Positions 4,179-61,714 of a stretch of 64,000 bases of DNA are shown piece after piece. The notes below the pieces were generated by a model. It saw only the letters and a list, made by a program, of their open reading frames with translations, did no database searches and had not been told where the DNA came from. Origin of the DNA: an uncultured Acidobacteriota bacterium. GTDB lineage: Bacteria; Acidobacteriota; Thermoanaerobaculia; Multivoradales; JAGPDF01. A program made the position numbers and the translations under genes. Numbering within the stretch: position 1 is the stretch's first letter; every line of letters begins with the position of its first letter. Where the stretch lies: contig CAWAGZ010000004.1 of assembly GCA_963781755.1 (NCBI GenBank), positions 272,937 through 336,936 on the forward strand, written 5' to 3'.

Positions 4179-4263
4179 GCTCCAATGCGGCCGCGCGGAC
4201 GTTCGGTAGGGCGGGCGCCACGAGGCGATCCCGAGCTACCGCAGGCGAGGACGTGTCTCGGGG

Positions 4264-31967: not shown

Positions 31968-31983
31968 ATCGGGAGGCCGGAAG

Positions 31984-33648
31984 ATGAGACCCGCACCGCT
32001 CTGGAACGCCCTGCTGCTGGCCGGCACCGCGGCGCTCGCCGCCGCTCCTCCGGGAGCGGCCGGCGCGACCGCCGGCCCGTCGCCCGGGCAGGTCGTCGCG
32101 GGTCCCACCGCGACCGCGGTCGCGACGCCGCCGCTGGCGAGCTTCCAGGCCGTACTGCAGCCCGAGCCGTGGCCGAGCGAGAAGGCCGAGGACCGCGTCA
32201 ACCCGCTGGCGGACGAGCCCGACGAGGGGCGCCGCGGCACCTGGAACCGCCTCGGGGTCCCGGAGGATCCCCTCGCCGGCCGCAGCCTCGCCGCCGGCGC
32301 CGAGACCCCGACGCCGCTGTTCGACTTCGCGGGGACAGATCAGCAGCACGGCTGCAGTTGCGCTCCGCCCGACACCGTCGGCGACGTCGGACCGAACCAC
32401 TACGTGCAGATGGTCAACGCCACCAAGATCCGGATCTTCGACAAGACGGGGGCGCCGGTCACCGGAGTGATCGACCTGGCGAGCTTCTGGGCGTCGGGCA
32501 ACTGCCACAGCGATCTGGGCGACCCGGTCGTCGTCTACGACTGGCTCGCCGACCGCTGGCTCCTGGCGCAGTTCGCGACCCCTCAGCAGTTCTGCTTCGC
32601 GGTGTCGCAGACCGCCGACCCGACGGGGTCCTACTTCGTCTACGAGTTCCCGGCCTCGAACTTCCCGGACTACTTCAAGATCGGCGTCTGGCCCGACGCC
32701 TTCTACGTCGCGGCCAACGAGAGTCCGTACAGCGCCTGGGCGTTCGAGCGCTCGAAGATGCTCGTGGGACAGACCGCGCAGTCGCTCCAGGCGTCGGTTT
32801 CCGGCGACAACTTCCTGATGCCGGTGGACTTCAACGGCCACGCGGCGCCGCCGGCCGGGACCCCGGGCTACTTCTACACCTTCCTCGACGACTCCTTCCA
32901 CGGCGGAGTGGACCGGATCCAGCTCGGCTCCTTCCAGGTCGATTGGGCGACGCCGGGCAACTCGAGCTGGAGCAGCACCGACCTGCCGATCGCGTCGTTC
33001 ACCTACACCGTGTGCGGCTTCTTCAACTTCAACTGCGCGCCGCAGGCCGGGACGACGCAGAAGTTGGACGTGGTCTCGGAGTGGCCGATGTACCGCTTCA
33101 CCTACCGCCGCTTCGACGACCACGAGAGCCTGCTCGGCAACTTCACCGTCGCCACCGGCTCGCCGACGATCGCCGCCCCGCGCTGGTTCGAGCTGCGGCG
33201 GACCTCGGGCGCTTGGAGCCTGTACCAGGAGGGGACGTACGTGCCGTCGGGCGGCGTCTTCCGCTTCATGGGCTCGATCGCCCAGGACGCGAGCGGCGAC
33301 ATCGCGCTCGGCTTCACCGCCTCGAGCTCCACGATCCACCCCCAGATCCGCTACGCCACCCGGCTGGCTTCCGATCCGCTCGGCACCCTGGGGTCCGAGG
33401 TCACGATGACCTCCGTCCTGGTCAACGGCTCGCAGACCGGCTCGAACCGCTGGGGCGACTACTCGGCGATGGCGATCGACCCGGCCGACGACTGCACCTT
33501 CTGGTACACCAACGAGTACTACCCGGTGAACAGCTCGGGATCCTGGAAGACGCGGGTCGGCTCCTTCCGGATCCCCGGCTGCGGGGCGATCTTCATCGAC
33601 GGGTTCGAGTCCGGCGACGCCAGCCGCTGGAGCGTGACCCTTCCCTGA
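31984..33648 (+). CDS. secreted hypothetical protein (signal peptide) ending in the C-terminal tail FIDGFESGDASRWSVTLP
   Basis: A 554-aa ORF with an N-terminal signal peptide (MRPAPLWNALLLAGTAALAAA). Its C-terminal 18 aa are shared with the proteins ending at 42186 (+) and 42345 (-). Confidence 0.7.
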   Translation: MRPAPLWNALLLAGTAALAAAPPGAAGATAGPSPGQVVAGPTATAVATPPLASFQAVLQPEPWPSEKAEDRVNPLADEPDEGRRGTWNRLGVPEDPLAGRSLAAGAETPTPLFDFAGTDQQHGCSCAPPDTVGDVGPNHYVQMVNATKIRIFDKTGAPVTGVIDLASFWASGNCHSDLGDPVVVYDWLADRWLLAQFATPQQFCFAVSQTADPTGSYFVYEFPASNFPDYFKIGVWPDAFYVAANESPYSAWAFERSKMLVGQTAQSLQASVSGDNFLMPVDFNGHAAPPAGTPGYFYTFLDDSFHGGVDRIQLGSFQVDWATPGNSSWSSTDLPIASFTYTVCGFFNFNCAPQAGTTQKLDVVSEWPMYRFTYRRFDDHESLLGNFTVATGSPTIAAPRWFELRRTSGAWSLYQEGTYVPSGGVFRFMGSIAQDASGDIALGFTASSSTIHPQIRYATRLASDPLGTLGSEVTMTSVLVNGSQTGSNRWGDYSAMAIDPADDCTFWYTNEYYPVNSSGSWKTRVGSFRIPGCGAIFIDGFESGDASRWSVTLP

Positions 33649-33664: not shown

Positions 33665-37186
<3,522 letters not shown>

Positions 37187-39669: not shown

Positions 39670-42186
39670 GTGAGAGTTCTCGGAATGGCTTCTGCGCTGC
39701 GGCTCCTGCCCCTGTACATCGCGATTCCCTGGGCAGGTCCCGCCCTCTCACAGCCAATACCGCTCGATTATTCCGAGCGCCAGGTGAATACATACACGCC
39801 CTGTGATCAGTGGCGGCCCGCTGTGGCGTCGGACCCGGACGGGTCGTTCGTCGTGGCCTGGACGAGCTGCGGGTCGCTGGGCAACGACGACTCCTTCAGC
39901 AGCGTGCAGGTGCGGCGCTTTGGCGCGGACGGCAACCCTCTGGATGCGGCAGACTTTCAGGTCAACATGTACACCGCCTACGATCAGCGCTACCCCTCGG
40001 TCGCGAGCGATGCGGAGGGGAACTTCGTCGTCGTGTGGGAGAGCTACGGATCGGCCGGTGGCGACGACGACGGGTACAGCATCCAGGCGCGGAGATTCGC
40101 GGCCGACGGGACTCCACTCGACGCCGCGGAATTCCAGGTCAACGCCTACACGACGAACCTCCAGCAGCGGCCGAAGGTCGCCATGGACCCCGAAGGGAAC
40201 TTCGTCGTCGTCTGGGACAGCTGGGGCTCGCCGACCGATTCGTCGGCCTACAGTGTCCAGGCGCGTAGGTTCGGCGCGGACGGAGCTCCGCTCGAGCCCA
40301 CGGAGTTTCAGGTCAACACGTTCACGTCCAACACTCAATTCACGCCGTCGGTGGGCGCCGACTTCGACGGCGGCTTCGTCGTCGGCTGGTTCAGTCACCA
40401 CCTGTGCGGAGGAGTCGAGTGCACGAGCATCGAAGCGCGCCGGTACCGCCGTGACGGCACCCCTGCGGACCCGGCCGAGTTCCGCGTCGACACTCCTGCG
40501 GGCAATGGCGTTGGCTCGCCGACGGTCGGCGCCGATCCCGCGGGCGAGTTCGTGCTTGCCTGGGAGATCACTCAACCGATCACCTTCCGCGAGAGCATCG
40601 GTGCGCGTCGATACCGCACCGACGGCACTCCAGTCGATCTCTTCGACTTCGAAGTCAGCTCCTACACCACCTGGGCGCAGGACCGGCCCTCGGTCTCCGC
40701 GGCCGCCAACGGCGATTTCGTGGTGGCATGGAGCAGCTACGGATCGAGCGGAGACGACCCCGGATTCAGCGTCCAGGGCCGCCGGTACCGTCCGGACGGC
40801 CCTTCTGTGGACCCGGGAGAGTTCCAGCTCAACGCCTACACCACGGGGAACCAGGTCCGGCCGTCCGTCTCACGGCGGCTGAACGGCGACTTCGTGGTCG
40901 CCTGGCAGAGCTACGGGTCGTTCGGCGACGACTCGAGCTACTGGAGCATCCAGGAGCGCCGCTTCGGGCGGCCGACGATCGAGGTGACGTCCAGCTCCGG
41001 AGCGACAGGCGGCCCGGACTGCAAGCTTCGCGACGCAATCGCGGCAGCGAATGCCGGTCAACCGGTCGGAGGCTGCCCGGGCGGAAACGAGGGGGCGGAA
41101 ATCGAGCTTCCGCCGGGGGCGACGATCGTGCTCACCGTCGCCGACAACGGGTCGAACGGACTTCCGCTGATCGCGAGGCCGATCACGGTCCGGGGTCGCG
41201 GCGCGACGATCACCCGGGACCCCGGGGTCGCCTGTCCGGTGGAACCGGAGTTCCGGATCTTCGAGGTGGTCGCGGGAGGTATCCTCGAGCTCCAGGACGT
41301 GACCGTGGCGCGCGGTTGCATCTCCAGTGGGAGTGGCGGAGCGGTGCTCGCGAGCGGCGGCACCGTTCTGCTGACCCGCGCTTCGATCGTGGGCAGCGAG
41401 GCGGGCTCCGACGGAGGCGGGGTCGCGGTGGTCGACGGCAGCTTGTTCGCGGCCGGCGCCACGGTGCGCGGTAACCTCGCAGCCGGGTCGGGAGGTGGCA
41501 TCTCGGTGTCGGGACTGGAAGGCCGCCTGCTGCTGCGTCGCTCGACGCTCTCTGGCAACGCCGCGACCTTCGGCGGTGGGCTCTCGCATGCGGCAGGCAC
41601 CCGGGCCTTGATTCGGACGTCGACGCTCTCCGGCAATGCGGCGCTGGGGTCCGGCGGTGGGATCGAGGCGGCTGGCTCCGGAGCGGGAAGCCGGGTGGTG
41701 CTCGACTTCTCCACGGTTACCGGGAATTTCGCCTCGGTCGGAGGTGGCTTGGACCTGGGATCCGGGACGTTCGATCTCCACGGCAGCCTGGTCGGCGAGA
41801 GCGCCTCGGGTGGAGACTGTGCCGCCGGCACCGGTGTCCTGGTCGCCACCGGTGCCAACCTCGACACCGACGGAACCTGCACGGCTCTGGCGGGGGGCCA
41901 CGTGTCGACGGTGGTGTCGCTCGACCTGGGTCCACTCCGCGACAACGGCGGATTCGTCTCAACCCGTGCCCCGCTCGGGGGCAGTCCTTCCCTCGACGCG
42001 GCGCCCGACTGTGCGAACCGCTCCGGCGCGGCTGCCCTCACCGACGAGCGAGGCTACCCGCGGCCGACCGACGACGACGGGGACGGCGCGCCCGCGTGCG
42101 ATCTGGGCGCGGTCGAGCGCGGACCGGTGTTCCTCGACGGCTTCGAGTCGGGCGATTTATCGGCCTGGTCCGGCGCGGGTCCCTGA
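39670..42186 (+). CDS. large secreted protein: seven tandem repeats of about 57 aa, then a CSLREA-type parallel beta-helix domain; ends in the tail FLDGFESGDLSAWSGAGP
   Basis: It has a signal peptide. The repeats follow the pattern FQVNxYTxxxQxxPSVAxDxxGNFVVxWxSxGSxGxDxxxxSxQxRRFxADGxP. The CKLRDAIAAAN motif resembles CSLREA. GGGxxxxG beta-helix repeats follow. Confidence 0.7.
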   Translation: MRVLGMASALRLLPLYIAIPWAGPALSQPIPLDYSERQVNTYTPCDQWRPAVASDPDGSFVVAWTSCGSLGNDDSFSSVQVRRFGADGNPLDAADFQVNMYTAYDQRYPSVASDAEGNFVVVWESYGSAGGDDDGYSIQARRFAADGTPLDAAEFQVNAYTTNLQQRPKVAMDPEGNFVVVWDSWGSPTDSSAYSVQARRFGADGAPLEPTEFQVNTFTSNTQFTPSVGADFDGGFVVGWFSHHLCGGVECTSIEARRYRRDGTPADPAEFRVDTPAGNGVGSPTVGADPAGEFVLAWEITQPITFRESIGARRYRTDGTPVDLFDFEVSSYTTWAQDRPSVSAAANGDFVVAWSSYGSSGDDPGFSVQGRRYRPDGPSVDPGEFQLNAYTTGNQVRPSVSRRLNGDFVVAWQSYGSFGDDSSYWSIQERRFGRPTIEVTSSSGATGGPDCKLRDAIAAANAGQPVGGCPGGNEGAEIELPPGATIVLTVADNGSNGLPLIARPITVRGRGATITRDPGVACPVEPEFRIFEVVAGGILELQDVTVARGCISSGSGGAVLASGGTVLLTRASIVGSEAGSDGGGVAVVDGSLFAAGATVRGNLAAGSGGGISVSGLEGRLLLRRSTLSGNAATFGGGLSHAAGTRALIRTSTLSGNAALGSGGGIEAAGSGAGSRVVLDFSTVTGNFASVGGGLDLGSGTFDLHGSLVGESASGGDCAAGTGVLVATGANLDTDGTCTALAGGHVSTVVSLDLGPLRDNGGFVSTRAPLGGSPSLDAAPDCANRSGAAALTDERGYPRPTDDDGDGAPACDLGAVERGPVFLDGFESGDLSAWSGAGP

Positions 42187-42344: not shown

Positions 42345-44144
42345 TCAGGGCGTGGTCGAGGACCAGTTCGCCGTGCTGCCGCGCTCGAAGCCGTCGTCGA
42401 AGATCAGCCGGCACGAGGCCGGGAGCGCCGTGTCGCCGGCGAGCTCGACGATCTGGGTGCGCCACGTGTTGGTCGCGGGCGCCAGCTCGGCGACCGACCA
42501 GAGCGTGTTGCACGTCCAGTCGTGGGCGACGCCCATGTAGTCGCCCCAGCGGTTGCGGCCCTGGTAGTAGACGTTGTAGGTGCCGCTGCCCCCGGCGGTG
42601 GCCCAGAACGGACCGCTGGTGTCGACGAGGAAGTTGGTGTAGAGCTTGAAGGCGGCCGAGGGGTAAGCGGTGTCCCCCGAGTAGGTCATCGGCACGCCGA
42701 CCATCGGGTTGTTGAACAGGTCGCTCCCGACCAGCCCGACCGCCGGGTAGTAGTAGTCGAGCCCGCCGGTGAAGTAGTTGATGGCCCGGTCCTGGACGTG
42801 GCTGTCGGTGTTGATCTTGCTGACGTAGAAGCCCGAGTTGCTGCTGTCGTTGGAGTTGACGCTGAAGTAGAGCTTGTGGTTGTCGTAGGCCGCGGTCAGG
42901 GCGCCGGCGTAGAAGGTCTCGATGTCGTCGAGGACCGTGCCGGGCTGGCGCGCCAGCGGCGGGCTCGCGTAGGCGTCGACGGTCACCGAATACGGGTCGA
43001 GGTGCGGCGCGTTGCCGCGGTCGCCGGTCATCTCCCACAGGCAGGCCTGGTTGCCGCTGGAGTTGAAAGTGTTGACGAAGTAGGTGGCGCCGATCGAGCT
43101 TCCCGTGTAAGGGACGGCCGGCTGGAGCTCACGGGCGAGCGGGTTGCCGGCATTGGGCCAGTGCAGGCCCCAGAAGATCCAGCCGGCGGTGCCGGTGTCG
43201 GTGAAGATCGTCGGCCGGACGCTGTAGACGATGGCGTGCTTGAAGCCGCCGGCCCAGTAGTACTCGTTGCCGGTGAAGTAGAAGCCGAAATCGTCGGCCG
43301 ACATCCCCGAGTAGTCGATCCACGTGTCGGTGTTGTACCCGTCGTAGAAGTAGTAGAGCGACCAGGCGCCGAGCGGGTTGTCGGTGTGCGAGATGGCGAC
43401 GAAGGCATAGCTCTTCTGGGCGTTCGAGTCGCTGGCCAGCGCCAGCAGGACGAACTTGTTGTGGAACGGGTCGTAGATCACGCGCGGATCGAAGACCTTG
43501 CCGTTGGCGAACGACCAGGGGGACGGCAGGTACGGCAGCAGCGGCGCGAACAGGCCGTTCTCGAGGTCGTTGTAGGAGCGCTCGAGGCCGCCGTCCTTGG
43601 TGTAGATCGTCAGCCCGGAGTTGACCGACTCGACGATGTACTTCGGTCCCACGGCGATCACCGGGTCGGGCGGGATCCAGCCGGTCGCGGACTGGCCGGC
43701 GAAGGAGCGCAGGATGTCGCCGGCCGCCTGGGGCGCGGCCGGAGCGTTCGGAGCGTTCGGGTCGTCTGGGTCGGCCAGCGGCGCCGGAACGGGCGCTTCG
43801 CTCTCGACCGCGTCGGAGCTGGCGAAGAAGTCGCCCAGGCCGCCGCCGAGCTCGCCCTCGTCGTCTTCGACGTCGTTGGAGGAGCCCTGGGCGTGACCGC
43901 GCAGGACGCCGGGGATCCGGTCGGGGTCGCCGCCGGGGACGTCCGAGAGCCGGACGACGACCGGGCCGATCATCTGGAGCGAGCCACCCGGAGCGGCCGA
44001 AGCCTCGCCGGTGGCGGCGGCGGGCGCCTCGCCGGGACGGGGCGTCTCCTGCGGGGGGCGCGGAGGGGTGGAGCCGAACGCCGGCGCCGCGAGGGCGCAG
44101 GCGAGGGCCAGCGGGAGCAGCTTCACGTGCTTTGCGGTGGTCAT
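42345..44144 (-). CDS. secreted hypothetical protein (signal peptide MTTAKHVKLLPLALACALAAPAFG) ending in the tail IFDDGFERGSTANWSSTTP
   Basis: About 600 aa from ATG 44144. The N-terminal 324 aa of ORF 42345..45119 are Arg-rich out-of-frame overlap with the next gene and are rejected. Confidence 0.7.
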   Translation of the reverse strand: MTTAKHVKLLPLALACALAAPAFGSTPPRPPQETPRPGEAPAAATGEASAAPGGSLQMIGPVVVRLSDVPGGDPDRIPGVLRGHAQGSSNDVEDDEGELGGGLGDFFASSDAVESEAPVPAPLADPDDPNAPNAPAAPQAAGDILRSFAGQSATGWIPPDPVIAVGPKYIVESVNSGLTIYTKDGGLERSYNDLENGLFAPLLPYLPSPWSFANGKVFDPRVIYDPFHNKFVLLALASDSNAQKSYAFVAISHTDNPLGAWSLYYFYDGYNTDTWIDYSGMSADDFGFYFTGNEYYWAGGFKHAIVYSVRPTIFTDTGTAGWIFWGLHWPNAGNPLARELQPAVPYTGSSIGATYFVNTFNSSGNQACLWEMTGDRGNAPHLDPYSVTVDAYASPPLARQPGTVLDDIETFYAGALTAAYDNHKLYFSVNSNDSSNSGFYVSKINTDSHVQDRAINYFTGGLDYYYPAVGLVGSDLFNNPMVGVPMTYSGDTAYPSAAFKLYTNFLVDTSGPFWATAGGSGTYNVYYQGRNRWGDYMGVAHDWTCNTLWSVAELAPATNTWRTQIVELAGDTALPASCRLIFDDGFERGSTANWSSTTP

Positions 44145-44146
44145 GG

Positions 44147-45058
44147 TCACTCTCCTGGAGTGGGATCGGGACATCTGTCGAGCCATGCGGAGGTCTGGAC
44201 GGTGAGCGGGTCGCGCGGGCGGCCGTCGTCGAGACGCGCGTCGGCCAGCGGCCGGAGCGAGATCGCCTCGGCGACGTCGAGGCCGGAGGCGACGCGGCCG
44301 ACGACCAGCCACTTGCCCAACCGGGTCGGATGGTCGGCGAGCAGGATCGAGAGCTCGAGCCGGGCGCGGGTCGGCGAAGCGGGGACGAGCGCGACGGCGC
44401 CGCGCAGCGGCGGCTGCGAGTCGAGCCCGGGGCGGAAGCGGTAGCCGAGTGCTTCGAGGATCTCCTGCCGGCTGGTGCCGACCAGGAACGACGGGTCGTA
44501 GTCCTTCTCGAAGCGCTCGCGCCAGGCGGCGAGCCGGGGCGTCGCCGGCTCCTCGGCCTCCCCGTGGTCGTTGTCTTCGGCACGCAGGTCCCCGGACTGC
44601 TGCCCGGGGCTCTCGCGCTCGGTCTCGGGTGCGGTTTCGACTTCGGGTTTGCGGCGCGTGGCGGCGCGCTGGGCGGCGGGGAGGAGCTCGAACTGCAGGA
44701 CGTTCATCGCCTCGCCGGCGTCGGCGATCCGGCTCCGGTCGAGACCGAGCGCGGCGGCGTCGTTGACCAGCTCGACGGTCGAGGAGGCGTCCGCCGGCCG
44801 CGGCTCGAGGCGCAGCTCGAGGTGCGGCCGCTCGAAGTCGAAAGCCAGTCCGGCGAAGCTCGATCCGTCGCCCTGCTCGAGCGCCGCGATGGCCTCGGGT
44901 GACGCCGCGCGGTCGAAGCGCAGGACGATCGCCCCGGCGGTGGTCTCCAACCGCAGGCAGGGGTCGGGCGCCACGGCGGCGGGTTGCCGCCCGGCGCGCG
45001 CCGAGGCGCAGCCCGCGAGCAAGATCGCGCTCCACACCATCAGGATTCGTCGGTCCAT
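44147..45058 (-). CDS. putative lipoprotein with a cyclophilin-like (peptidyl-prolyl isomerase-like) C-terminal segment
   Basis: Signal peptide and lipobox (ILLAGCASA) are present. The C-terminal GKWLVVGRVASGLDVAEAI resembles the cyclophilin FGKV..GMDVV motif. It lies immediately upstream of, and co-directional with, the tagged secreted protein gene. Confidence 0.5.
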   Translation of the reverse strand: MDRRILMVWSAILLAGCASARAGRQPAAVAPDPCLRLETTAGAIVLRFDRAASPEAIAALEQGDGSSFAGLAFDFERPHLELRLEPRPADASSTVELVNDAAALGLDRSRIADAGEAMNVLQFELLPAAQRAATRRKPEVETAPETERESPGQQSGDLRAEDNDHGEAEEPATPRLAAWRERFEKDYDPSFLVGTSRQEILEALGYRFRPGLDSQPPLRGAVALVPASPTRARLELSILLADHPTRLGKWLVVGRVASGLDVAEAISLRPLADARLDDGRPRDPLTVQTSAWLDRCPDPTPGE

Positions 45059-45148
45059 TCGCACTCTCCACTTCCTGCCAGTCACCTAGGAGACGGGAAC
45101 CGCGGGGAAAAGCGGACACGGGGCGGCGAAGGTGGCGCCGAGGCTCAG

Positions 45149-45625
45149 GTGACAGTTACGCCACATCTCCGATGTGGCGTAACTGTCACCTCTCGAGCGC
45201 GACGCAGGCCCTGCCTCGGCGAGCGTGTGCCGGTGCGCACCGAAGGCGTCTCCAGGGGACACCCAGCAAGCCAGGGTGTCCCCTCGGGGAATCTCCCGCC
45301 TCGCCGGTCAGCGAACTCCAGGTCTGTCATCGGGAGGGGCGGCCTGGAAAAGGGGGACAGGCACCCATTTCCCACGGTTCAAGAATCTCGGCTGGGAGCG
45401 CTGCCGGGACTCGGAAATTGGTGCCTGTCCCCATTTTTCGGTCCTTCGTTCGATTGGATTGCGCGGCGCTCGGAGGCCAGGCCTCCACGTTGGCTGGCTC
45501 CTCCCGACGACAGACCTCGGCTTGGCGCACCGGCGAGGCGGGAGATTCCCCCAGGGGACATGCAGGCTTGCTGCGTGTCCCCTCATGACGCCTTCGTCCC
45601 GCCGCGGCACCCGCCGGCTCGCGCC
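45149..45625. repeat. composite structured repeat: palindrome P2 (45149-45189), H module (45215-45345) and an inverted H module (about 45470-45625)
   Basis: P2 has a perfect 19-bp inverted repeat, GTGACAGTTACGCCACATC-TCCG-GATGTGGCGTAACTGTCAC. H2 and H4 are mutually inverted copies, each containing the GGGGACAY.C...G.RTGTCCCC hairpin. Confidence 0.8.
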
Positions 45626-45645
45626 ACGGCTAGAATCGAGCTTCC

Positions 45646-46122
45646 TTGGCCGCAGAGACCCTTGCGCCTTCGGCGCCCGCGCCCGGTCTCCGGACTTCCG
45701 TGGCCGCGCTCGCGGCACTGGCCCGGGAATCGCCGATCGAGGTCGTGGTGACCACCGGCTCGATGGCGCCGGCGATCGCCGCCGGCGCGCGGGTCGAGGT
45801 CGCGGGGCAGCGGCGCTACCGGCGCGGAGACGTCGTCGTCTTCGCCAACTCGGCCGGGGATCTGGTCGTCCACCGGCTGCTCGGCCGCCGGCGCGTCCGG
45901 GGCTCGGTCCACCTGGTCACCCGCGGCGACGCCGCGCCGCGCGCCGACGGGCTGGTGCCGCCCGAGCGCGTCGTCGGCCGCGTCGTGGGCGGGGAGTGCG
46001 CGCCGCGGGTCGCCGACGTGCCGGCCGGCGACCGGCTGCGCGCCGCCGGGCGATTCCTCGGCTACCTGGCCGGTCGCGTGCGCGCGCGCGTCGCCGACCG
46101 GCGCGAACCGGGAGAGACGTGA
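45646..46122 (+). CDS. S26/S24-family (signal peptidase I / LexA-like) serine peptidase-like protein
   Basis: VVVTTGSMAPAIAAGARVEV matches the SGSMxP(T/A) Ser-nucleophile motif of signal peptidase I-type peptidases. It is the first gene of the operon, and the 4-bp overlap with the next gene implies translational coupling. Confidence 0.6.
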   Translation: MAAETLAPSAPAPGLRTSVAALAALARESPIEVVVTTGSMAPAIAAGARVEVAGQRRYRRGDVVVFANSAGDLVVHRLLGRRRVRGSVHLVTRGDAAPRADGLVPPERVVGRVVGGECAPRVADVPAGDRLRAAGRFLGYLAGRVRARVADRREPGET

Positions 46123-47087
46123 CCTTCGCCGCGGCGTTCCTGCGCGAGCCGGACCTGTTCCCGGCGCGCCCGGCGGGGGAGCCCTGGGGCACGGCGAGCC
46201 TGGCCGTGGACGCGATCGCCGGGCCGTACCTCTTCCTCGGGCTCTCGGAGGCGCAGCGCGAAGTGCTCGCGGCGCACTTCGGCGCGCGCGTCGTTGTCGG
46301 AGACCCGCCCGGGGACGCGACGCCGATCGTCGCCTTCCGGGTCGCCGCGGAGGAGCTGGTGCCGATCGTCGAGGAGCCGTGGGAGCTCCAGATGGACCTC
46401 GAACCGGCGCCGACCTGCGTGCGCTGGGCGACGCGGCGCTCCTTCGGCCGTCTCGACTGGCGCCCCGAGATCGCCGCCGCGCTCTGGCTGCCGGAGCCGG
46501 AGACCGGGACGCCGGACGCCCGCGCCGCCGAGGAGTGGATCGGGACCTTCGGCAACGCGCTGCGCATCGCCATGGCCCACCGCCTGCTCGCCGCCGGCGG
46601 CGTCCTGCTGCACAGCGCCGGGGTCGCCCGCGAGGGGCGCGGCTACGTCTTCTTCGGCCGCTCGGGGGCGGGCAAGTCCACGCTCGCGCGCCTGTCGCAC
46701 GAAGCCGGCCTCGAGGTGCTCTCCGACGAGCTCAACGCTCTCTACGAGCGCGACGGCGCGCCGGTCGTCGAGCGCCTCCCGTTCGCCGGCGACTTCGGCC
46801 GCGACCGGGAGAGCGTGGGCCTGCCCGGCGACGCCGCCGGACGGCGCGTCTTCCCGCTCGCGGCGCTGCTCGCGCTCGCCCAGGGCCGGCCGCCGCGCCG
46901 CGAGGCGCTGCCCCGTGGCCGGGCGGTGGCCGAGCTGGCGGCGTGCGCGCCGTTCGTCAACGTCGATCCGCACCGCTCGCCGCGCCTGCTCGAGACGCTC
47001 GAGCGGCTGACCGCGCGCTTCCCGGTCGAGCGCCTGACGTTCGATCTCGACGCCGGCTTCTGGAGTATCCTGACCGCGAACCGATGA
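46119..47087 (+). CDS. HprK-related kinase (P-loop; HprK-related kinase A/B family)
   Basis: GTG 46119 overlaps the upstream stop. The Walker A motif GRSGAGKST lies in an HPr-kinase C-terminal-like fold context (LLHSAGVAREGRGYVFFGRSGAGKSTLA). Confidence 0.7.
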   Translation: MTFAAAFLREPDLFPARPAGEPWGTASLAVDAIAGPYLFLGLSEAQREVLAAHFGARVVVGDPPGDATPIVAFRVAAEELVPIVEEPWELQMDLEPAPTCVRWATRRSFGRLDWRPEIAAALWLPEPETGTPDARAAEEWIGTFGNALRIAMAHRLLAAGGVLLHSAGVAREGRGYVFFGRSGAGKSTLARLSHEAGLEVLSDELNALYERDGAPVVERLPFAGDFGRDRESVGLPGDAAGRRVFPLAALLALAQGRPPRREALPRGRAVAELAACAPFVNVDPHRSPRLLETLERLTARFPVERLTFDLDAGFWSILTANR

Positions 47088-47111
47088 GAGCTGTCCGATG
47101 AGAGTCCGGCG

Positions 47112-47432
47112 ATGACCCCGGCGCCGTCCGGGAGCCCCCGATACCGCCGTGTCGCCGACGTGCGCTACCGCGTCCTCGACGGCGAGGCGGTGGTGCTGCG
47201 CCAGCGCGCGGCCGAGGTGCTGGGCCTGAACCGCGTCGGCTCGCGGGTGCTCGAGCTGGTGGACGGCGAGACCGGCGAACCGGAGCTGCTCGACCGGCTG
47301 GCCGACGAGTTCGAGGTCGAGCGGGCGACGCTCGAGGCGGACGTCCGCGCTTTTCTCGACGAGCTGGTCGCCGCGGGCGTGCTCGAGCGGCTGCCCGCGG
47401 CCCCGGGGGAGAGCGCGGAGACGGAGCGATGA
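47112..47432 (+). CDS. PqqD-family peptide chaperone (RiPP recognition element)
   Basis: A 106-aa protein (VLDGEAVVL...LNRVGSRVLELVDGETGEPELLDRLADEFEVERATLEADVRAFLDELVAAGVL) typical of PqqD/RRE proteins. Confidence 0.75.
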   Translation: MTPAPSGSPRYRRVADVRYRVLDGEAVVLRQRAAEVLGLNRVGSRVLELVDGETGEPELLDRLADEFEVERATLEADVRAFLDELVAAGVLERLPAAPGESAETER

Positions 47433-48548
47433 GCGCCGGCGGCGGCGAGGGCGCGGCGAGCTACGGCGAGAAGCTGGCGACCTTCTGGCGCGACAACCGG
47501 CTGTTCACGGTTCTGTTCGAGCTGACCTACCGCTGCAACCTCGACTGCTCGTTCTGCTACAACGACCTCGGCCTGGCCGGCCGGCCGCTGACGCTGGCGC
47601 GCTACCGCGAGGTGCTCGACGAGCTGGCCGTCCTGGGCACGATGCACCTGGCCCTGTCGGGCGGCGAGCCGCTGGCGCACCCGGACTTCTTCGCCATCGG
47701 ATCGCACGCCCGCGAGCGCGGCTTCGTGGTCCGGATCAAGTCGAACGGCCATGCCCTGCGCGGCGCCCTGGCGCGCCGGTTGCGCGACGAGGTCGACCCC
47801 TACCTGATCGAGATCAGCATCCACGGCGCGCACGCGGCGACCCACGACCGCCAGACCCGGGTGCCCGGGAGCTTCGAGCGTCTGCTGGCCAACCTCGAGG
47901 AGCTCAATGCGCTCGGGATCCGGGTGCAGCTCAACTCGACATTGACCGCTTGGAACGAGGCCGAGATCGGGGAGCTCTTCGCCCTGACCGACCGTCTGGG
48001 GCTGCCGCTCCAGGTGGACCCGGAGGTCACCCCGCGCGACGACGGCGACCGCACGCCGCTCGACATCGCTGCCCTCGCGCGCGGGCATCCGCCGGCTGTT
48101 CGAGCTGCAGCGCGAGCGCGTGGCGCGGGCTGCGGCCGAGGGCGCGCCGCCGCCGCCGCCGGTGGGCAAGCAGGCCGACTCCGCCGGCACGCCGGTTTCG
48201 GCGGGCAAGTACTGCGGCGCGGGCTCCTCGCACCTGACGGTGGATCCCTACGGCAACGTCTACCCGTGCGTCCAGTGGCGCCGGCCGGTGGGCAACCTCC
48301 ACGAGACGACCGTCGCCGAGATCTGGTCGTCGTCGCGCGGCCTCGCCGAGGTGCGCGCGGTCGAGGGGGAGGTCCTGGCGAACGTCGAGGCGCTGGGGCC
48401 GGACGGACGCGACCTCGGCCTCTGCCCGGGGCTGGCCGAGCAGCTCACCGGGCACGCGGCGCGCATCTACCCGGCGGCGGCGGAGCGGCTCGAGCTACGG
48501 CGCGACGTGGCGCGCGCGGGGCACGCCAAGCTGCCGATCGTGCGCTGA
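47429..48548 (+). CDS. radical SAM / SPASM-domain peptide-modifying enzyme, interrupted by a +1 frameshift near 48083
   Basis: The radical SAM core is in frame 2 (CNLDCSFCYN, GGEPL). The SPASM domain is in frame 0 (CGAGSSHLTVDPYGNVYPC) and ends at 48548. Removing one G from the GGG at about 48083 gives a continuous 373-aa protein. ATG 47429 overlaps the PqqD stop. Confidence 0.75.
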
Positions 48549-48556
48549 GGGCGAAG

Positions 48557-48595
48557 GTGACAGTTACGTCACAGACATAACTGTCACCTTTTTCG
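48557..48595 (+). terminator. intrinsic terminator formed by palindrome P3 plus a T-run
   Basis: GTGACAGTTACGTCACAGACATAACTGTCAC is followed by CTTTTTC, 9 bp after the radical SAM stop. Confidence 0.5.
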
Positions 48596-48725
48596 GGCCA
48601 CCAACGCCGGGTGCCGGTGCGAACCGAAGGCGTCTCCAGGGGACACGCAGCAAGCCAGCATGTCCCCTCGGGGAATCTCGCGCCTCGCCAGTCCGCGGAG
48701 CCGCGCTCTTTCACCGGCAGGCGAG
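48557..48725. repeat. composite structured repeat: palindrome P3 plus H module H3
   Basis: H3 (48600-48725) carries the hairpin GGGGACACGC-AGCAAGCCA-GCATGTCCCC and a conserved tail (CGGGGAATCTCGCGCCTCGCCAGTC). Confidence 0.8.
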
Positions 48726-49101
48726 GCGGGCGCCCTGCCGCTTTCCACTTCTCTTGCTGCTCTGGTCTTCTTCTGGAAAGGGAGTACCCGGTGGGCACCC
48801 GCCGGCGAAGCCAGGCGGCGCCCTTCGGCGGGTTGGTGGGGGTGGGAGGGTGGGCTGCAGGGCGCCGGGACCCGGGCCGCAGCGATCTACGAAGACACCA
48901 CCAGATTACAACCGCCCCCCTGGCCGAAGGCTTTTCCCGGGGAGCACAACGCCGCAACGGCTTCGAGCTTCTCGCGGTAGACGATGCGGGGCGCTTGGTA
49001 GCGGCCCCGCTCCGGTCTTCCCGGCTCGGTGCTCGCGTCGGCTTCGGTCTCGGGTCGGCGGTCGGTCATCGAGTCAGTCACCATTCGAAGGATGCATCAC
49101 G

Positions 49102-52100
49102 TCAGTTCTCGTCGCCCGAGGGGGACGGAGGCACGTCGATCACGGGCGCCGGGACGAGCGTCGCCGGATCGCCCAGCAGGACATAGAGACGGGCGAGCCC
49201 GGGGTCGCCGCCCTTCTCGAGGTAGCGCGCGACGGCCGCGTGCAGCACGTCGCCCAGGCGCAGGTCGGGTTCGTGGAACGCGGCGTCGGCGAGCGCGATC
49301 CCGAGCTCGCGCGCATCGCCCCGCTCCGACTTGCCGGCCGGCGCCCAGACCGCGATCGCGCCGCCGGCCGGCGAGCGCACCAGCTCGGTGCCCAGGGTCC
49401 GGAACTCGTGCAGCTCGAAGCGGTTGACCAGGCAGGTCATCGCGGTGACCACCGGCGTGCGTCCGAGGTTGGTCATCTGATCGACGTCGTCCAGGTTCAG
49501 GAGCGAAGGCGAGGCCAGGTTCTGCACGCCGCCGTGCCCGAAGTAGTCGAGCCAGCCGATGCCGGCCGCGAAGTCGCCCAGCAGGCGCGCGTGCGCGGCC
49601 TCGTTGCCCAGCGCCGAGACCGAGATCGAGTCCACGTTCATCGCCGGGGCGATGTGCGGCGCGACGCTCTGGGCGTCGAGCTCGAAGTCGTCGCCCTCGT
49701 CCGGCGCGGCGGCGACCAGCGCCGCCCGTCCGGCCCAGTCGCCTGCGCCGCCGCCCTCGTAGAGGTCGAGCTTGTGGACGAAGGCGGCGACGTCCGCCGG
49801 GACCAGCGCCGGCACGCGGCCGACCTCGATCTCGGGCAGGCCGTCGCCGTCCACGTCGCCGTAGCCGGCGTCGGCGGCGACCAGGCCGCCGGTGCCGACG
49901 TCGGTCGCGACCATCAGCGGCGGCACGAGGTCGCCGCCGTAGCCGAGGCGGTCGCGCAGGTCGTAGTTGCCGTCGCCGACCAGGACCGCGTAGCGCGGCC
50001 GCACCTGCCAGTGATTCCAGGCCCAGGCGAGGAAGCGGGAGATCGCGCGCGGGCCGTGGATGCCGGAGTCGAACTCGTCCTCGACGTCCTCGAGCCGGGC
50101 CACCATCACGCTCAGCCCCTGGCCGGCGCGGCGCGCCGCCAGGGCCCGCGCGGCGGGCACCAGGAAGTCGGGCGCGACGACGACGTACTCGGCGCCGGCC
50201 GAGGCCCGCAGCGCGCTCGGGCGGTCCGCTTCGACCGCGAGCGGTGCGCGGGCCGCGGCGGGCGAGACCGCCAGGTAGTCGCGGGCGCCACCCTTCTCGG
50301 CGAAGCCGAGATTCCAGCCGCCGCTCCCGGGCTCGAGCGCCGCGCCCACGAGGCGCACGGGCCGGTCGGGATCCGAGACGTCGAGCAGCAGGACGTCGGG
50401 ACGGCTGAACCCGGTCACGGCGGTGGCGCCGGAGTCGCGGAACGCGAGCCGGTCGTCGAGCGCGTGGTGGCTGCGCGTGTATTCGAGCGCGAAGCCGTCC
50501 ACCATGACGGTGCTGTTGGGGGCGCCGCCGCCCGGCCGCGCGTGCAGCGTGACCTGGTTGCCCGCGGGCAGGATCCGGGCCGGGTCGATCGGGTAGCGGA
50601 CGACCTGCGGAGCGAACCCGGTCCAGTTCGTGGTGCCCAGCGGCAGGCCGTTGAAGTCCACCTCGACCTCGTGCTCGTCGTCGATCCCGAGCGAGGTGTC
50701 GCCGAACAGGCGGACCTCGAGCACGGCCCCGCCTTCGCCGGTCGGGTCGGGGGCTTCGACCGGATAGTCGCGCGTCGTCGGGTGCGCGACGTCGGTCCCG
50801 AGCTGGTCCTGGAACCAGAAGTCGGAGGCCGGGTCGAAGGGCAGGGCGACGATCGAGATCAGGTCGCGCTCGGTCTCGACCCGGTCGGGAGCGGCTCCGG
50901 CGGGCGCGGTCGGCGCGACGGAGACCCCGCGCGACGGCATCGTCGCGCCGGAGCCGAGCGTCAGGCGATAGACGCTGTCGGCCTCGAGCTCGTCGGCGGG
51001 CGGGCGGCCGTAGAAGAGGAGCGCCGAGCCGTCGTCGGCGGCCAGCCACGGCGCCTTGGCGCCGCGGTGGGTGAGCAGGAAGCCGCCGCCGCGCAGGCGG
51101 TCGCGGACCGCGGACTCGGGTACGCCGAAGCGCGCGGCCAGGTCGGAGGCGTCGACCCGGTAGAGGCCGGCGTCGAGCAGGTGCAGCTTCAGCGCGCGCA
51201 CCGGGGTCGGAGCCGGCCCTGCCAGGGGTCCGCGCTGCGCGGCGAGCCGCGAGCGGCGCAGACGCGCCAGTTGGACCGGATCGGGACCGATCGCTCGGCG
51301 CGAGAAGGCGAGCGAGGCGTCGAAGCCGGCGGCGAGGTCGAGCTTCGCCGCGCCCTTCGGCGTCTCGGCGGCGGGCCGGAAGGGGCCGTAGCGGCGAACC
51401 TGCCCGTCGATCTCGACCTCCACCAGGGCGTAGATCGGGTCGGCGCCCGCGCCGGCGTCGACCGTGCGGTAGACCGCGCCCGCGGGGGCGGGAGAGTCCG
51501 CGAGGATCATCCCGGGCTGCACCAGTTCCCAGTCGCGGGAGTCGCGGTTCCAACGGTAGAGGTAGTAGCCCGCGGTCCGGTCCTCGGTCGCGGTGCGCCA
51601 CTCGACGGCGCCGCCGTGCCGCATCGGCGCGGCCGCGAACGAGGTCACCAGCGTGTACGTGGGCTGACCCGAGGTCACCGCCAGCTCGCAGATCGGGCCC
51701 AGGGTCGAGAGCGCTCGCGCCTGCGAGGCGTTGCCGGTGGCGTCTACAAAGCGGGCGCGGGTGCCCTGGGCGGCGGCGAAGTTGCTGTCGATGTTGGCGG
51801 TCCCTGTCGTGCGGATACGCACGCCCGAAAGGTTCGGGGTGACCCGGACGTCGTAGGCGAGGATGCAGGTCGTGCCGGCAGCGACCGAGCCCGGATTCCA
51901 GATCACGCTGCCCGCGGTCGCGCCGTCGGCCGGCTGCGAGGCGACGCTGCCGCAGCTCGCCTGGGCGCTCGACCCGGAGTACGCGACCCGGGCGTCGCCC
52001 GGCAGGTCGGCGACGACGACGTTGCCCGCGGTGGTCGTGCCCGAGAAGGTGATCGGGAACGGCGTCGGGTTGGTCACCCGCACGGTCACCGTCACCGTCG

Positions 52101-53892
52101 TGGTCTGACCGGTCACCGGCGGGTTCGGGCCCGAGCTGTAACCCTCGACCTGCTCCAAGTAGGGCTTGGCCGGCGGCCCGCCGCCGTCGCGCGGGAGGTA
52201 GACGCGGTAGGCGTTCGGCGTCGGGTTGGCCGCCGGCGTCGCCGAAGCCGACTCGAAGTCGGCGAACCAGACGTTGGCCAGGTTGCCGCCGCCGGAGTTC
52301 TGGGTCGAGATGCGGACGATCGAGTGCCAGATGCCGTAGTCGACCGCTGCCGAGTCGCTGGTCCAGGCGGTGATCGTCTCGCGGTTCCACTCGTTCCCGC
52401 CGGAGAGCACCGAGCTCTGGATGTCCTGCTGCCGGTCGCCGACGTTCGACGAGGTGTTGTGGCTGCGCGTCCACAGCTCGACGCGGCCGAACTCCTGGCC
52501 GGCGGAGCCGCCACCGATGCCGTTGCCGACGTCGTAGTCGAAGTCGTTCTCGAACGCGGTGCAGCCGCTGGTGATGTAGGGGTAGACGTCGTACGACCGC
52601 GTCGGGCCGTTCGTGGCGTTCAAGAGCCCGTACTCGGTGTGCGAGTCGTAGTAGACGTTGTACTCGGTGCCGCCCGCGCTGCTGTCGCCGTCGTGGGCGC
52701 GGATCGCGTAGGCGTTCTCGGCGCCGGTGTTGGTCACCGCGCCGGACATGTCCATCACCAGCTCCCAGTGCCCGGCGATCGGCGTGACCGCCGCTGCGGT
52801 GGGGGCGATCGCCAACGACACCGCGCGCCAGTTCTCGGCGGCACTGATCTGGAAGTTGCTCGCGCCGGAAGCGCCGGTCGTGGGGCGAGGCTCGAGGGCG
52901 ACCCCCAGCGTGACCCCGTTGGTGGCGTTCGGCGCCTCGATGTTGGTCTGCATCGCGGCCAGCGAGGCGTTCGTCAGATTGCGCCCGTCGTCCGCGATTC
53001 CGGCGATCCGCAAGACCATGCTCCGGGCGACGGTCGTCGTCACGCTCGGCGACACCGGGATCGTCCCGTTCCCGTTGCCGAAAGTCGTCGCGAAGGTCGC
53101 GGTGTTGACGTGGGTCAAGCGCAGCACCACGCCGACCGCTTCCCGCGTCGTGGCGCCGCCGCCGTTCCAGTTCACGTTGACGGGGCTCGTTTCGCTCCCG
53201 GTCGCGGTTCGGGTGAAGACCGCCATCCGCACATGGCTGTTGAAGATGTCGCCGGAATTCCCCTCGTCTCTGACGGTCCAGCCGGTCGGCGTGGCGATGC
53301 CCGGTGTGCCGCCGCTGCCGCGGGCGACGATGGCGACGAGCAGGTCGCCCGCGGTGATTCCACTCGGCAACGTGAGGTTGATCGACGTGCCCGAGCCGCT
53401 CGCCTTGCTCGAGGTCGCGGAGCCGGCGAGCGTCGGGCCCGTGGCGTTCGAGTCGTAGAGCGTCTGCCAGGTGTTGTCGGCGCCGGCGGGGTTGGCGCTG
53501 GTCCCGAAGTAGTAGTTGTTCCAGACCTCTCCGCCGCTGGGATCGAACAGCGTGTACTGCGCCCGCGTCGTGGTGCTGTCGTTCGAGTCGCGGTCGGCGG
53601 CGAGCTCGGTGGCGCCGCCGCTGTTGACGTCGGCGTCCCACATGTCCACGACCAGGCGCGAGGAGCCGGGGGGCACCTCGATGAAGTAGTGGTAGGCCGT
53701 GTTCAGCCCACCGCTGCTCGAGATGAAGTCGCCGTTGGCGGTTCCGTCACCCGAGCCGGCGGGCTTGAAGTGCTGGGTGGTCGCGTTGCCGCCGGCGAGG
53801 ATCGGCGTCGCGACGAGCGCCGCGGCGAGCAGGATCCCGGCCGCCGCATGCGAGGCGCGGACGAATCTCGGTCGGGTCGCTGGCGGAGTCAT
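49102..53892 (-). CDS. giant secreted protein (1596 aa) with a C-terminal peptidase C25 (gingipain-like, clan CD) domain
   Basis: Signal peptide MTPPATRPRFVRASHAAAGILLAAALVA. The Asn/Thr/Ser/Gly-rich beta-type N-terminal region is not recognised as any known domain. The C-terminal region has the C25 hallmarks VVAPDFLV..., YFGHGG (His) and AMTCL (Cys). The overlapping +/- ORFs (1719 aa and 1514 aa) are Arg-rich artefacts. Confidence 0.8.
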   Translation of the reverse strand: MTPPATRPRFVRASHAAAGILLAAALVATPILAGGNATTQHFKPAGSGDGTANGDFISSSGGLNTAYHYFIEVPPGSSRLVVDMWDADVNSGGATELAADRDSNDSTTTRAQYTLFDPSGGEVWNNYYFGTSANPAGADNTWQTLYDSNATGPTLAGSATSSKASGSGTSINLTLPSGITAGDLLVAIVARGSGGTPGIATPTGWTVRDEGNSGDIFNSHVRMAVFTRTATGSETSPVNVNWNGGGATTREAVGVVLRLTHVNTATFATTFGNGNGTIPVSPSVTTTVARSMVLRIAGIADDGRNLTNASLAAMQTNIEAPNATNGVTLGVALEPRPTTGASGASNFQISAAENWRAVSLAIAPTAAAVTPIAGHWELVMDMSGAVTNTGAENAYAIRAHDGDSSAGGTEYNVYYDSHTEYGLLNATNGPTRSYDVYPYITSGCTAFENDFDYDVGNGIGGGSAGQEFGRVELWTRSHNTSSNVGDRQQDIQSSVLSGGNEWNRETITAWTSDSAAVDYGIWHSIVRISTQNSGGGNLANVWFADFESASATPAANPTPNAYRVYLPRDGGGPPAKPYLEQVEGYSSGPNPPVTGQTTTVTVTVRVTNPTPFPITFSGTTTAGNVVVADLPGDARVAYSGSSAQASCGSVASQPADGATAGSVIWNPGSVAAGTTCILAYDVRVTPNLSGVRIRTTGTANIDSNFAAAQGTRARFVDATGNASQARALSTLGPICELAVTSGQPTYTLVTSFAAAPMRHGGAVEWRTATEDRTAGYYLYRWNRDSRDWELVQPGMILADSPAPAGAVYRTVDAGAGADPIYALVEVEIDGQVRRYGPFRPAAETPKGAAKLDLAAGFDASLAFSRRAIGPDPVQLARLRRSRLAAQRGPLAGPAPTPVRALKLHLLDAGLYRVDASDLAARFGVPESAVRDRLRGGGFLLTHRGAKAPWLAADDGSALLFYGRPPADELEADSVYRLTLGSGATMPSRGVSVAPTAPAGAAPDRVETERDLISIVALPFDPASDFWFQDQLGTDVAHPTTRDYPVEAPDPTGEGGAVLEVRLFGDTSLGIDDEHEVEVDFNGLPLGTTNWTGFAPQVVRYPIDPARILPAGNQVTLHARPGGGAPNSTVMVDGFALEYTRSHHALDDRLAFRDSGATAVTGFSRPDVLLLDVSDPDRPVRLVGAALEPGSGGWNLGFAEKGGARDYLAVSPAAARAPLAVEADRPSALRASAGAEYVVVAPDFLVPAARALAARRAGQGLSVMVARLEDVEDEFDSGIHGPRAISRFLAWAWNHWQVRPRYAVLVGDGNYDLRDRLGYGGDLVPPLMVATDVGTGGLVAADAGYGDVDGDGLPEIEVGRVPALVPADVAAFVHKLDLYEGGGAGDWAGRAALVAAAPDEGDDFELDAQSVAPHIAPAMNVDSISVSALGNEAAHARLLGDFAAGIGWLDYFGHGGVQNLASPSLLNLDDVDQMTNLGRTPVVTAMTCLVNRFELHEFRTLGTELVRSPAGGAIAVWAPAGKSERGDARELGIALADAAFHEPDLRLGDVLHAAVARYLEKGGDPGLARLYVLLGDPATLVPAPVIDVPPSPSGDEN

Positions 53893-54029
53893 CGCGGTCC
53901 TCAGTTGGAGTGAATGGATTCACACCGAAGGTAGCACAGCCAAGGTCCACCGTCCAATGGACTTCCCGCGCTCCCCCGCTCCCCGGAATCCGACCTGCCA
54001 ACCACCGTGACCGTCTATTCCGGTTAGAG

Positions 54030-54060
54030 GTGACAGTTACGTCACAGACATAACTGTCAC
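54030..54060. repeat. palindrome P4 (GTGACAGTTACGTCACAGACATAACTGTCAC)
   Basis: The same palindrome family lies 26 bp downstream of the stop of the minus-strand gene 54086..54628. Confidence 0.8.
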
Positions 54061-61400: not shown

Positions 61401-61618
61401 TCGGCTGGGGCTTCGACTTCCGCCGCTTCCGCTTCGTCTCGGGCGGCGAGTCGAGCCAGTGGTGGCGGCCGATGGGCATCGCCGTGATGGCCGGCCTGGC
61501 CTTCGCCACCTTCCTGACGCTGGTGCTGGTGCCGGTGCTCTACGACCTGCTGCTCGACGCCCGCTCCCGCCTCGCCGCCCGCCGTGCCACCCGGGTGACA
61601 GTTACGTCTGTGACGTAA
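58448..61618 (+). CDS. efflux RND transporter permease (AcrB/CzcA family)
   Basis: A 1056-aa, 12-TM protein with the conserved AcrB motifs. Its last residues (..RVTVTSVT) are encoded by palindrome P5. Confidence 0.9.
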   Translation: MRLGELAVRKRATVLFALVAVAIVGSSAYVSLPRESFPDISVPNILVYTLWPGASPADVEKQLTDELERELQGIDGIKELTSTSTDSVSLVNVEFVSGTDIDFALQKVRDRVNIAKADFPDDVEEPVLRELNFSDFPILQVHLAGDVGPVELRRLAKELQDEVEAIPGVLRASLVGGVEREVRIDVDPERLRLYGLSLDDVVDTIRDENVSIPGGDLELEGQTLAVRVPGEVADPRGMESFVVKAVGGHPIQVRDVAAVSYGFKDRSSYSRIDGHESVSLSVQKRSGANIIAVTDAIKQEVRRRRATWPAGVDVTFLADQSKDIRIMVSDLENNILSGVVLVVIVLFFALGLRNALFVGAAIPLSMLLTFVVVQLAGMTLNMMVLFSLVLAVGMLVDNSIVVVDNIYRHVQEGKSPVEAATIGTREVGSAVLNSTLTTIAAFVPLFFWPGIVGDFMSILPIAVCIALAASLLVAFTANPTFAASFMKLGHDREVVVTDEARVPEGSGLGGRILTFYRGLLSWALDHRLAVVGGTLGLFVVVLALFGAFSRGVEFFPETEPRQIFASVETPPGTRLERTDAIVHELEGRLASLPDVRVTAAASGAGASGDEFSGGRSEGGDPTHGRVTLDLLDMDQRSQSSFDTLAEARRRVKGIPGATINVERPDEGPPVGAPVTIEIAGDDFAKLGEISERIRKAIADVPGLATLESDFNLARPEVVVRVDRDRAAEAQLTTSKIASTVRTAVKGTKASDFRDGEDEWDVTVRFAPDARASLADLSRLVVVNEDGRQIPLATVASVETGAALDSIRHKDRRRVVTLSGKVTKPELAQPVRDEVQRRIAAEPGLLPVGYTVRFAGASQEEDEAKAFLSKAFLYAILLVLLLIVGQFDSYAVPFIIMTSVVMSTIGVLLGLLVTGTPFGIIMTGLGVISLAGVVVNNAIVLLDYAEQMRRKGMARRTLLLVTGMRRLRPVMLTAITTILGLAPTVVGWGFDFRRFRFVSGGESSQWWRPMGIAVMAGLAFATFLTLVLVPVLYDLLLDARSRLAARRATRVTVTSVT

Positions 61619-61714
61619 CTGTCACGCACCCGAAGCCGGGTTCTTCCGGCGGCGGGACGCGCTGGATCCGGCGTTTTCCGGACGTGACAGTCACGTCCGT
61701 GACGTAACTGTCAC
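61595..61714. repeat. two palindromes of the GTGACAGTYACG family (P5 61595-61625, P6 61684-61714) between convergent genes
   Basis: P5 is GTGACAGTTACGTC-TGT-GACGTAACTGTCAC and P6 is GTGACAGTCACGTC-CGT-GACGTAACTGTCAC. Each overlaps a stop codon, of the RND gene (+) and of 61691..62251 (-). Confidence 0.8.

Follow-up and report, generated by a model that had tools for sequence, protein, structure and literature searches.

A probable complete RiPP locus of an Acidobacteriota bacterium, in which a signal-peptidase-like protease, an HprK-like kinase and a radical SAM enzyme are linked to a dedicated precursor peptide family

What does a peptide-maturation operon act on when no precursor is found within it? 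This question is raised by four forward-strand genes at positions 45646-48548 of the stretch analysed here, 64,000 nucleotides of DNA from an uncultured Acidobacteriota bacterium (contig CAWAGZ010000004.1, positions 272,937 to 336,936; the whole stretch is called the window below) with a G+C content of about 70%. The genes encode, in this order, a serine peptidase of the SipW/Sec11 type, an HprK-like kinase, a PqqD recognition protein and a radical S-adenosylmethionine (SAM) enzyme. An initial annotation, made from the sequence alone, had read them as an operon for the maturation of a peptide made by ribosomes and modified after its translation (RiPP), and this reading is borne out. Inspection of the sequence confirmed the four co-directional genes, the overlap of the peptidase stop with the kinase start (GTGA, 46119-46122), that of the PqqD stop with the radical SAM start (ATGA, 47429-47432) and the 24-bp spacing between the kinase and PqqD genes (47088-47111). 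The view that the operon is an orphan without a precursor did not hold. A dedicated precursor of 65 residues is encoded on the reverse strand at 48887-49084, just outside the interval of the operon, and is linked to the same cassette in other genomes. We consider it probable that the window carries a complete RiPP locus made of two convergent units, the precursor gene together with a gene for a C25 cysteine peptidase on the reverse strand and the four maturation genes on the forward strand.

The precursor was found by translating the intergenic open reading frames (ORFs) in the neighbourhoods of five kinase homologues. The homologous loci compared are labelled L001-L017, L013 coming from Paenibacillus violae and L009 and L010 from Anaerolineales. 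Every good locus contained a conserved small ORF, including the window, where it encodes the sequence MVTDSMTDRRPETEADASTEPGRPERGRYQAPRIVYREKLEAVAALCSPGKAFGQGGGCNLVVSS with the predicted core ALCSPGKAFGQGGGCNLVVSS and the leader motif YQAPRIV...LEAVA. This ORF is convergent to the operon, 340 bases downstream of it, and begins 17 bp past the stop of the C25 peptidase gene. It lies beside the cassette in the window and in L001, L002, L004 (two copies), L006, L008 and L014-L016. A profile search retrieved at least 476 relatives, all unnamed and devoid of Pfam domains, and an exhaustive search yielded 891 clusters at 50% identity (E<=1e-3); neither Pfam nor NCBIfam holds a model for the family. 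Residues were counted in 158 distinct sequences. Their leader carries the motif YxxPxIL, whose Tyr is found in 155 of them, and in most cases an A-x-A site. Exactly two Cys are present in the core of 157 sequences, separated by 10-12 residues in 152, with a Lys between the two Cys in 157, and the core ends with a Ser in all 158. The consensus read from the aligned list is RRP-YExPRILSREPLEAVAAVC(S/A)PxxPAKxNPGxCPSGPISS.

The linkage of this family to the maturation genes was followed in metagenomes, where a scan with an alignment of 11 precursor sequences returned 80 loci. A radical SAM gene was present in 38 of the 39 loci whose sequence reaches 1.5 kb or more downstream of the precursor, and in 30 of these 39 it was convergent to the precursor within 900 bp. 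In the seven loci flanked by 6 kb or more on each side, the peptidase, kinase, PqqD and radical SAM genes were all present (7/7). A gene of the NTP_transf_5 family was found in five of these seven. A profile search of genome contigs with the kinase alignment gave six relevant loci amid many generic P-loop matches, and these include the Anaerolineales and Paenibacillus loci. The two Anaerolineales loci are composed differently: L009 (7632-13563) has a kinase, a Cys-free precursor (..KPYIKPAIVQELDLEARAGS..), a C25 peptidase, an S26 peptidase and PqqD without a radical SAM gene, and L010 (5841-12058) has PqqD, a radical SAM enzyme with a full SPASM domain, a three-Cys precursor, a kinase and a C25 peptidase.

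Profile searches upheld the family assignments of the four maturation proteins at the superfamily level. The peptidase reaches 52 bits with the archaeal-type signal peptidase I model TIGR02228 (cutoff 51.85), its Pfam matches to S26 and S24 are weak, and its nearest solved relatives are SEC11A and SEC11C. It is an S26B-type serine peptidase resembling LppS, without a transmembrane segment. The gene is present and its superfamily had been named correctly, but its start had probably been misplaced: the longest ORF opens at TTG 45646, whereas the gene probably starts at GTG 45700 (45700-46122, forward strand), since the resulting 140 residues match the length of the homologues (137-140 aa). LppS belongs to the linear polyphosphorylated peptide (LPP) system of Bacillota, which comprises LppA, K, B, S, D and N (Popov et al. 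Nat Commun 2026, PMC13381572). This signal peptidase I (SpI)-like enzyme, with catalytic residues S29, H68 and D93, removes the leader only in the presence of LppB, a RiPP recognition element (RRE) (PMC13381572). The LppS homologue of L013 matches the window peptidase with E=7e-6 (tblastn), and in the alignment the three catalytic positions are kept within GSMAP, VHRL and GDxxxxxD. The proposal that the signal-peptidase-like enzyme removes the leader is strengthened, and it is likely to be the leader peptidase, as its homologue LppS has been shown experimentally to act in this way with the help of an RRE (PMC13381572). In two loci, L006 (6591-7001, GTCMVP) and L016 (11555-11962, GDCMAP), the Ser nucleophile of GSMAP is replaced by Cys while His and Asp are kept. 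In L001 (6564-6989) the slot of the S26-like peptidase is occupied by a transglutaminase-like peptidase of the lasso B2 type (PF13471), apparently a non-orthologous replacement of the leader peptidase, as expected if this slot is the leader-peptidase position.

The kinase (46119-47087, forward strand, 322 aa, GTG start) belongs to the ScmC (PF27840) family, the Pfam domain that most of its homologues, abundant in Acidobacteriota, carry as a precomputed annotation. Its own matches are weak, restricted to the P-loop and below the cutoffs (HprK_rel_A 32 bits, HprK_rel_B 27, ScmC 21). As a search of solved structures with a profile of the kinase alignment also reached only the P-loop region, we turned to the predicted structure. 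The AlphaFold2 model (pLDDT 86, pTM 0.87) matches the phosphoenolpyruvate carboxykinase and HprK/P folds, and the protein shares His165, Lys186 and Asp203/Glu204 with homologues of the LppK-like and lasso-kinase types. The initial annotation stated that no function had been defined by experiment for HprK-related kinases, which no longer applies: in lasso precursors the strictly conserved C-terminal Ser is phosphorylated by PadeK, ThcoK and PsmK (PMC9266682), and in LPPs Ser3 of the core is polyphosphorylated by LppK (PMC13381572). The third protein (47112-47432, forward strand, 106 aa) is a discrete RRE of the PqqD family, with 59 bits to PF05402. Its best NCBIfam match is the lasso PqqD chaperone model, and the nearest solved structure is that of the lasso RRE TbiB1, a B1 protein (E=1e-7).

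The radical SAM enzyme (47429-48548, forward strand; 372 aa if one extra base is removed) contains the CxxxCxxC motif and matches Radical_SAM (PF04055) with 69 bits. This part of the earlier assignment stands, while the SPASM domain is truncated and twitch-like with three conserved Cys, the Pfam match to SPASM covering only positions 1-48 of 67. In the acidobacterial clade, the C-terminal domain keeps only Cx12Gx4C and one further Cys, where the full SPASM motif has seven Cys for two auxiliary clusters; in the homologue from the Anaerolineales locus L010 all the SPASM Cys are present. The enzyme reaches no NCBIfam family; NirJ, AhbD, MftC and PqqE are the best matches, all far below cutoff, and PqqE is its nearest solved structure.

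The pathway that we propose starts from the observed gene content, precursor family and invariant residues, gene linkage and conservation of catalytic residues. The discrete PqqD protein would bind the YxxPxI(V/L) motif of the leader and present the peptide to the radical SAM enzyme, which would introduce one or two crosslinks via the two invariant core Cys. These residues are compatible with Cys-to-carbon thioether crosslinks; the thioether type is our guess, and the invariant Lys may be involved. Presented by PqqD to the HprK-like kinase, the peptide would be phosphorylated or polyphosphorylated on Ser, the invariant C-terminal Ser being the most likely target. Presented to the soluble SipW-type serine peptidase, it would lose its leader by cleavage at the A-x-A site (LEAVA/A, the slash marking the cut), which would release a core of about 21 residues. 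The LPP leader of L013, YIRPMVLSQQPVRFET followed by AQS at the junction, aligns collinearly with YERPRILSREPLEAVA followed by AVC. In this alignment the predicted junction carries an A-x-A site of the signal-peptidase type, and Cys1 stands where LPPs have their phospho-Ser. A profile of the acidobacterial precursors, searched against 1534 small ORFs, ranks the candidate precursor of L009 first and the LPP-type precursor of L012 second.

Several points weigh against this scheme. We infer every chemical step, the order of the steps and the cleavage site by analogy or homology. As sequenced, the radical SAM gene is frameshifted, and its product stands outside the curated families and keeps only three SPASM Cys, so that the type of reaction would not be fixed by its sequence. 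The invariant Cys1 occupies the position of LPP phospho-Ser3 in the collinear alignment, and the Ser beside it is Ala in 37 of the 158 precursors, which implies that a site like Ser3 of LPPs is not conserved. The profile matches the LPP precursors weakly (E=0.044, from a small database). Finally, neither the MsbA-like exporter LppD nor the NTP-transferase LppN has a match anywhere in the 64-kb window.

The neighbour of the precursor gene raises the question of whether the mature peptide is released at all. This neighbour, at 49102-53892 on the reverse strand, encodes a giant secreted PorU-like C25 cysteine peptidase of 1596 residues and is probably co-transcribed with the precursor gene. Residues 1236-1578 match PF01364 with 213 bits. 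The best NCBIfam match is the model of PorU (NF033707), the sortase of the type IX secretion system, at 149 bits and thus below the cutoff of 420. PorU (6ZA2) is also the only solved relative, and its GHGG and TC catalytic motifs align. In the window, L001-L004, L008 and L014-L016, a C25 gene adjoins the precursor or the cassette, and in the Anaerolineales loci L009 and L010 it is enclosed by clusters of kinase, RRE and precursor genes that differ in gene order. In two database entries, P0326 (1426 aa) and P0243 (714 aa), a C25 peptidase continues in frame at its C-terminus into the precursor; these could be read-through products, gene-calling artefacts or natural fusions. In P0326, the fused precursor is immediately preceded by what looks like a sorting signal, made up of a Cys-rich motif, a stretch of hydrophobic residues and a basic tail.

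We regard it as rather unlikely that the peptide is a dedicated partner (cofactor, inhibitor or anchor) of the C25 peptidase and of envelope polysaccharide machinery and not a free secreted product. In favour of such a partnership, the C25 gene is embedded in the two Anaerolineales clusters and is found just upstream of the precursor both in the window and in metagenome loci; this holds, however, for only 12 of 34 metagenome loci, and the gene is missing from about 60% of the loci as well as from L006 and L017. Where it is absent, the gene upstream of the precursor ends like a polyprenyl glycosyl-phosphate transferase, a family that we take it to belong to from its C-terminal sequence. The frequent neighbours include Wzy_C and NTP_transf_5 genes, and L003 and L016 have Wzy_C and Bac_transf genes close by. 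The core is also unusually conserved for a RiPP, and LPP clusters are likewise found in capsule loci (PMC13381572). On the other hand, the association could partly reflect synteny shared within Acidobacteriota. Under the preferred reading of a complete RiPP locus, the repeated association with polysaccharide genes and a PorU-like peptidase suggests that the peptide functions in the cell envelope and not as an antibiotic.

Is the pathway still active in this organism? Frame 0 of the radical SAM gene runs from 47429 to about 48070 and encodes the core domain, and the +1 frame continues to 48548 with the C-terminal domain. One extra base is present near 48069-48071 in comparison with L014, L015 and L002, where the gene is intact (372 aa and about 94% DNA identity in L014 and L015; 369 aa and 85% in L002). 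This base, which splits the gene, lies outside any long homopolymer, as would suit a true pseudogene in a decaying locus whose pathway no longer works or is limited to phosphorylation and cleavage. However, the remaining genes and the precursor are intact, and the protein sequence is conserved on both sides of the frameshift. Moreover, the housekeeping gene metH of the window (33701-37183) aligns to its homologue in four consecutive pieces in different frames, amounting to at least three frameshifts, which makes indel errors likely in this assembly. Given these frameshifts and the intact relatives that are 94% identical, an error of assembly is probably the cause, as judged from sequence comparison, and decay of the locus appears unlikely.

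The window also encodes three large, apparently secreted proteins (31945-33648 and 39670-42186 on the forward strand, 42345-45119 on the reverse strand) that end alike in the tag C..(I/F)F.DGFE.G....WS...P, the stop following in every case five residues past the Trp. Proteins with this tag are also encoded in L002 (649-2358) and L014 (12894-15743). Neither the two tag regions scanned nor a whole protein of 567 residues reached an NCBIfam family, and one tagged protein has a sub-threshold choice-of-anchor Q match upstream of the tag. The tag may be a sorting signal. A crosslinked, C-terminally phosphorylated (elsewhere glycosylated) peptide, made beside genes for the initiation of polysaccharides, might even serve as a cell-surface linker that the C25 'sortase' employs as acceptor or anchor for attaching the tagged proteins; we find this very improbable, although, if true, it would amount to a RiPP-based protein-sorting system in Acidobacteriota. 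The proposal that the operon has no small precursor and acts on the C-terminal tags of its secreted neighbours (ends at 42186 and 42345) draws on the common ...DGFE.G....WS...P tag of the three proteins, the adjacent sortase-type peptidase and the two in-frame fusions, yet we give it hardly any credence: the cassette has a precursor gene of its own, linked to it in 38 of 39 loci, the tagged proteins lack the YxxP motif and are not conserved neighbours of the cassette, being absent from most homologous loci (e.g. L001, L004, L006, L008 and L016), and RREs of the PqqD type found here bind N-terminal leaders.

Cys-containing ORFs upstream of the operon had also been put forward as precursors. The region in which they lie (45120-45645) consists of a repetitive extragenic palindrome (REP)-like element and a 118-nt inverted repeat, without counterpart in the homologous loci, and these ORFs were rejected. 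The arms of the inverted repeat (45223-45340 and 45497-45614, within 45223-45614) are 81% complementary, and from its sequence the repeat looks like a miniature inverted-repeat transposable element. The REP-like palindrome GGTGACAGTTACG...CGTAACTGTCACC recurs between genes of the window, with 9 arm matches against 0.02 expected by chance; copies are located at 30385-30397, 45147-45191, 48554-48590, 54029-54041, 61594-61626 and 61703-61715. The copy between the convergent radical SAM and precursor genes may act as a terminator. Consensus scans of 45000-49300 revealed no sigma-70 promoter and no intrinsic terminator.

How does this locus relate to known systems? The LPP system shares with it the soluble SipW-type leader peptidase with a Ser/His/Asp triad, the discrete lasso-like RRE and the HprK-like kinase. 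The leader YxxPx(V/I)LSxxP(V/L) of the acidobacterial precursors is collinear with the LPP leader, whose motif is YxxPxVLxHQxIxFET/AxS (PMC13381572), and the related loci often lie among polysaccharide genes, with NTP_transf_5. The differences are equally clear. Here the cassette invariably includes a radical SAM enzyme, where LPP clusters have the kinase as their sole class-defining enzyme and yield a linear product, the core belongs to a strongly conserved Cys-x(10-12)-Cys...Ser family, the predicted junction is AVA/AxC instead of FET/AxS, the host is an acidobacterium and a PorU-like C25 gene is a frequent neighbour. LPPs have been termed restricted to Bacillota, and the paper mentions neither a radical SAM enzyme nor a C25 peptidase (PMC13381572). 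In evolutionary terms, it is quite likely that the peptidase/kinase/RRE module of the Bacillota LPPs has been joined to a radical SAM enzyme and to a new family of Cys-containing precursors, a combination that is widespread in Acidobacteriota. In L013, one of the distant kinase matches, the genes for the precursor, kinase, PqqD, S26-like peptidase and an ABC exporter are consecutive, forming an LPP system, and adjoin a classic lasso cluster of the paeninodin type. Between its C25 gene and the precursor, L016 carries further genes for PqqD, a B2-like peptidase, a P-loop kinase and NTP_transf_5 (4093-6845). This second set suggests that two systems dependent on an RRE are neighbours there, as LPP and paeninodin are reported to be in Bacilli.

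With the phosphorylated lasso peptides (paeninodin, pseudomycoidin) the locus has in common an HprK-like kinase acting on a precursor with a strictly conserved C-terminal Ser; the C-terminal Ser targeted by the lasso kinases (PMC9266682) has its match in the 158 of 158 C-terminal Ser counted here. The YxxP/WxxP leader and the discrete B1-type RRE are also shared, in L001 even together with a B2-type peptidase, whereas the S26-type peptidase and the radical SAM enzyme set the present locus apart. Membership in the lasso peptides was rejected because the Asn-synthetase-like cyclase (C protein) is absent: with the cyclase of L013 as tblastn query, neither the window nor about 90 related loci of the acidobacterial type gave a match.

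The SynChlorMet (SCM) and HPr-rel-A systems, both defined by comparative genomics in TIGRFAMs/NCBIfam, likewise bring together an HprK-related (ScmC-family) protein, a PqqD homologue and a radical SAM/SPASM enzyme. SCM differs by its two radical SAM genes, against one here, and the present locus has in addition a peptidase and a clear precursor; for the SCM cassette, we know of no precursor identified so far. All scores remain far below the cutoffs of SCM (ScmC 21 bits for 125, ScmD 17 for 100, ScmE 63 and ScmF 69 for 400) and of HPr-rel-A (kinase A, TIGR04352, 32 bits for 200; PqqD, TIGR04353, 24 for 35), and on score cutoffs membership in SCM, HPr-rel-A, GeoRSP, mycofactocin and PQQ was rejected. 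Literature searches on HprK/PqqD/SPASM and on RiPPs of Acidobacteria yielded no description of this system. Sactipeptide and ranthipeptide maturases (SkfB, CteB, PapB type) also combine a radical SAM enzyme bearing an auxiliary-cluster domain with an RRE and a Cys-containing core. Their counterpart here differs in having an RRE encoded by a gene of its own and a truncated SPASM domain with three Cys left, and it reaches no curated family.

An operon that seemed to lack a substrate thereby becomes a testable RiPP pathway, with its substrate, recognition motif, predicted cleavage site and candidate modified residues named. A large uncurated precursor family with an unusually conserved core is defined, paired with a radical SAM enzyme outside the curated families. 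The suggested link to the cell envelope bears on the biological function of LPPs and of phosphorylated lasso peptides, and the peptidase/kinase/RRE logic of LPPs is extended to Acidobacteriota and Chloroflexota.

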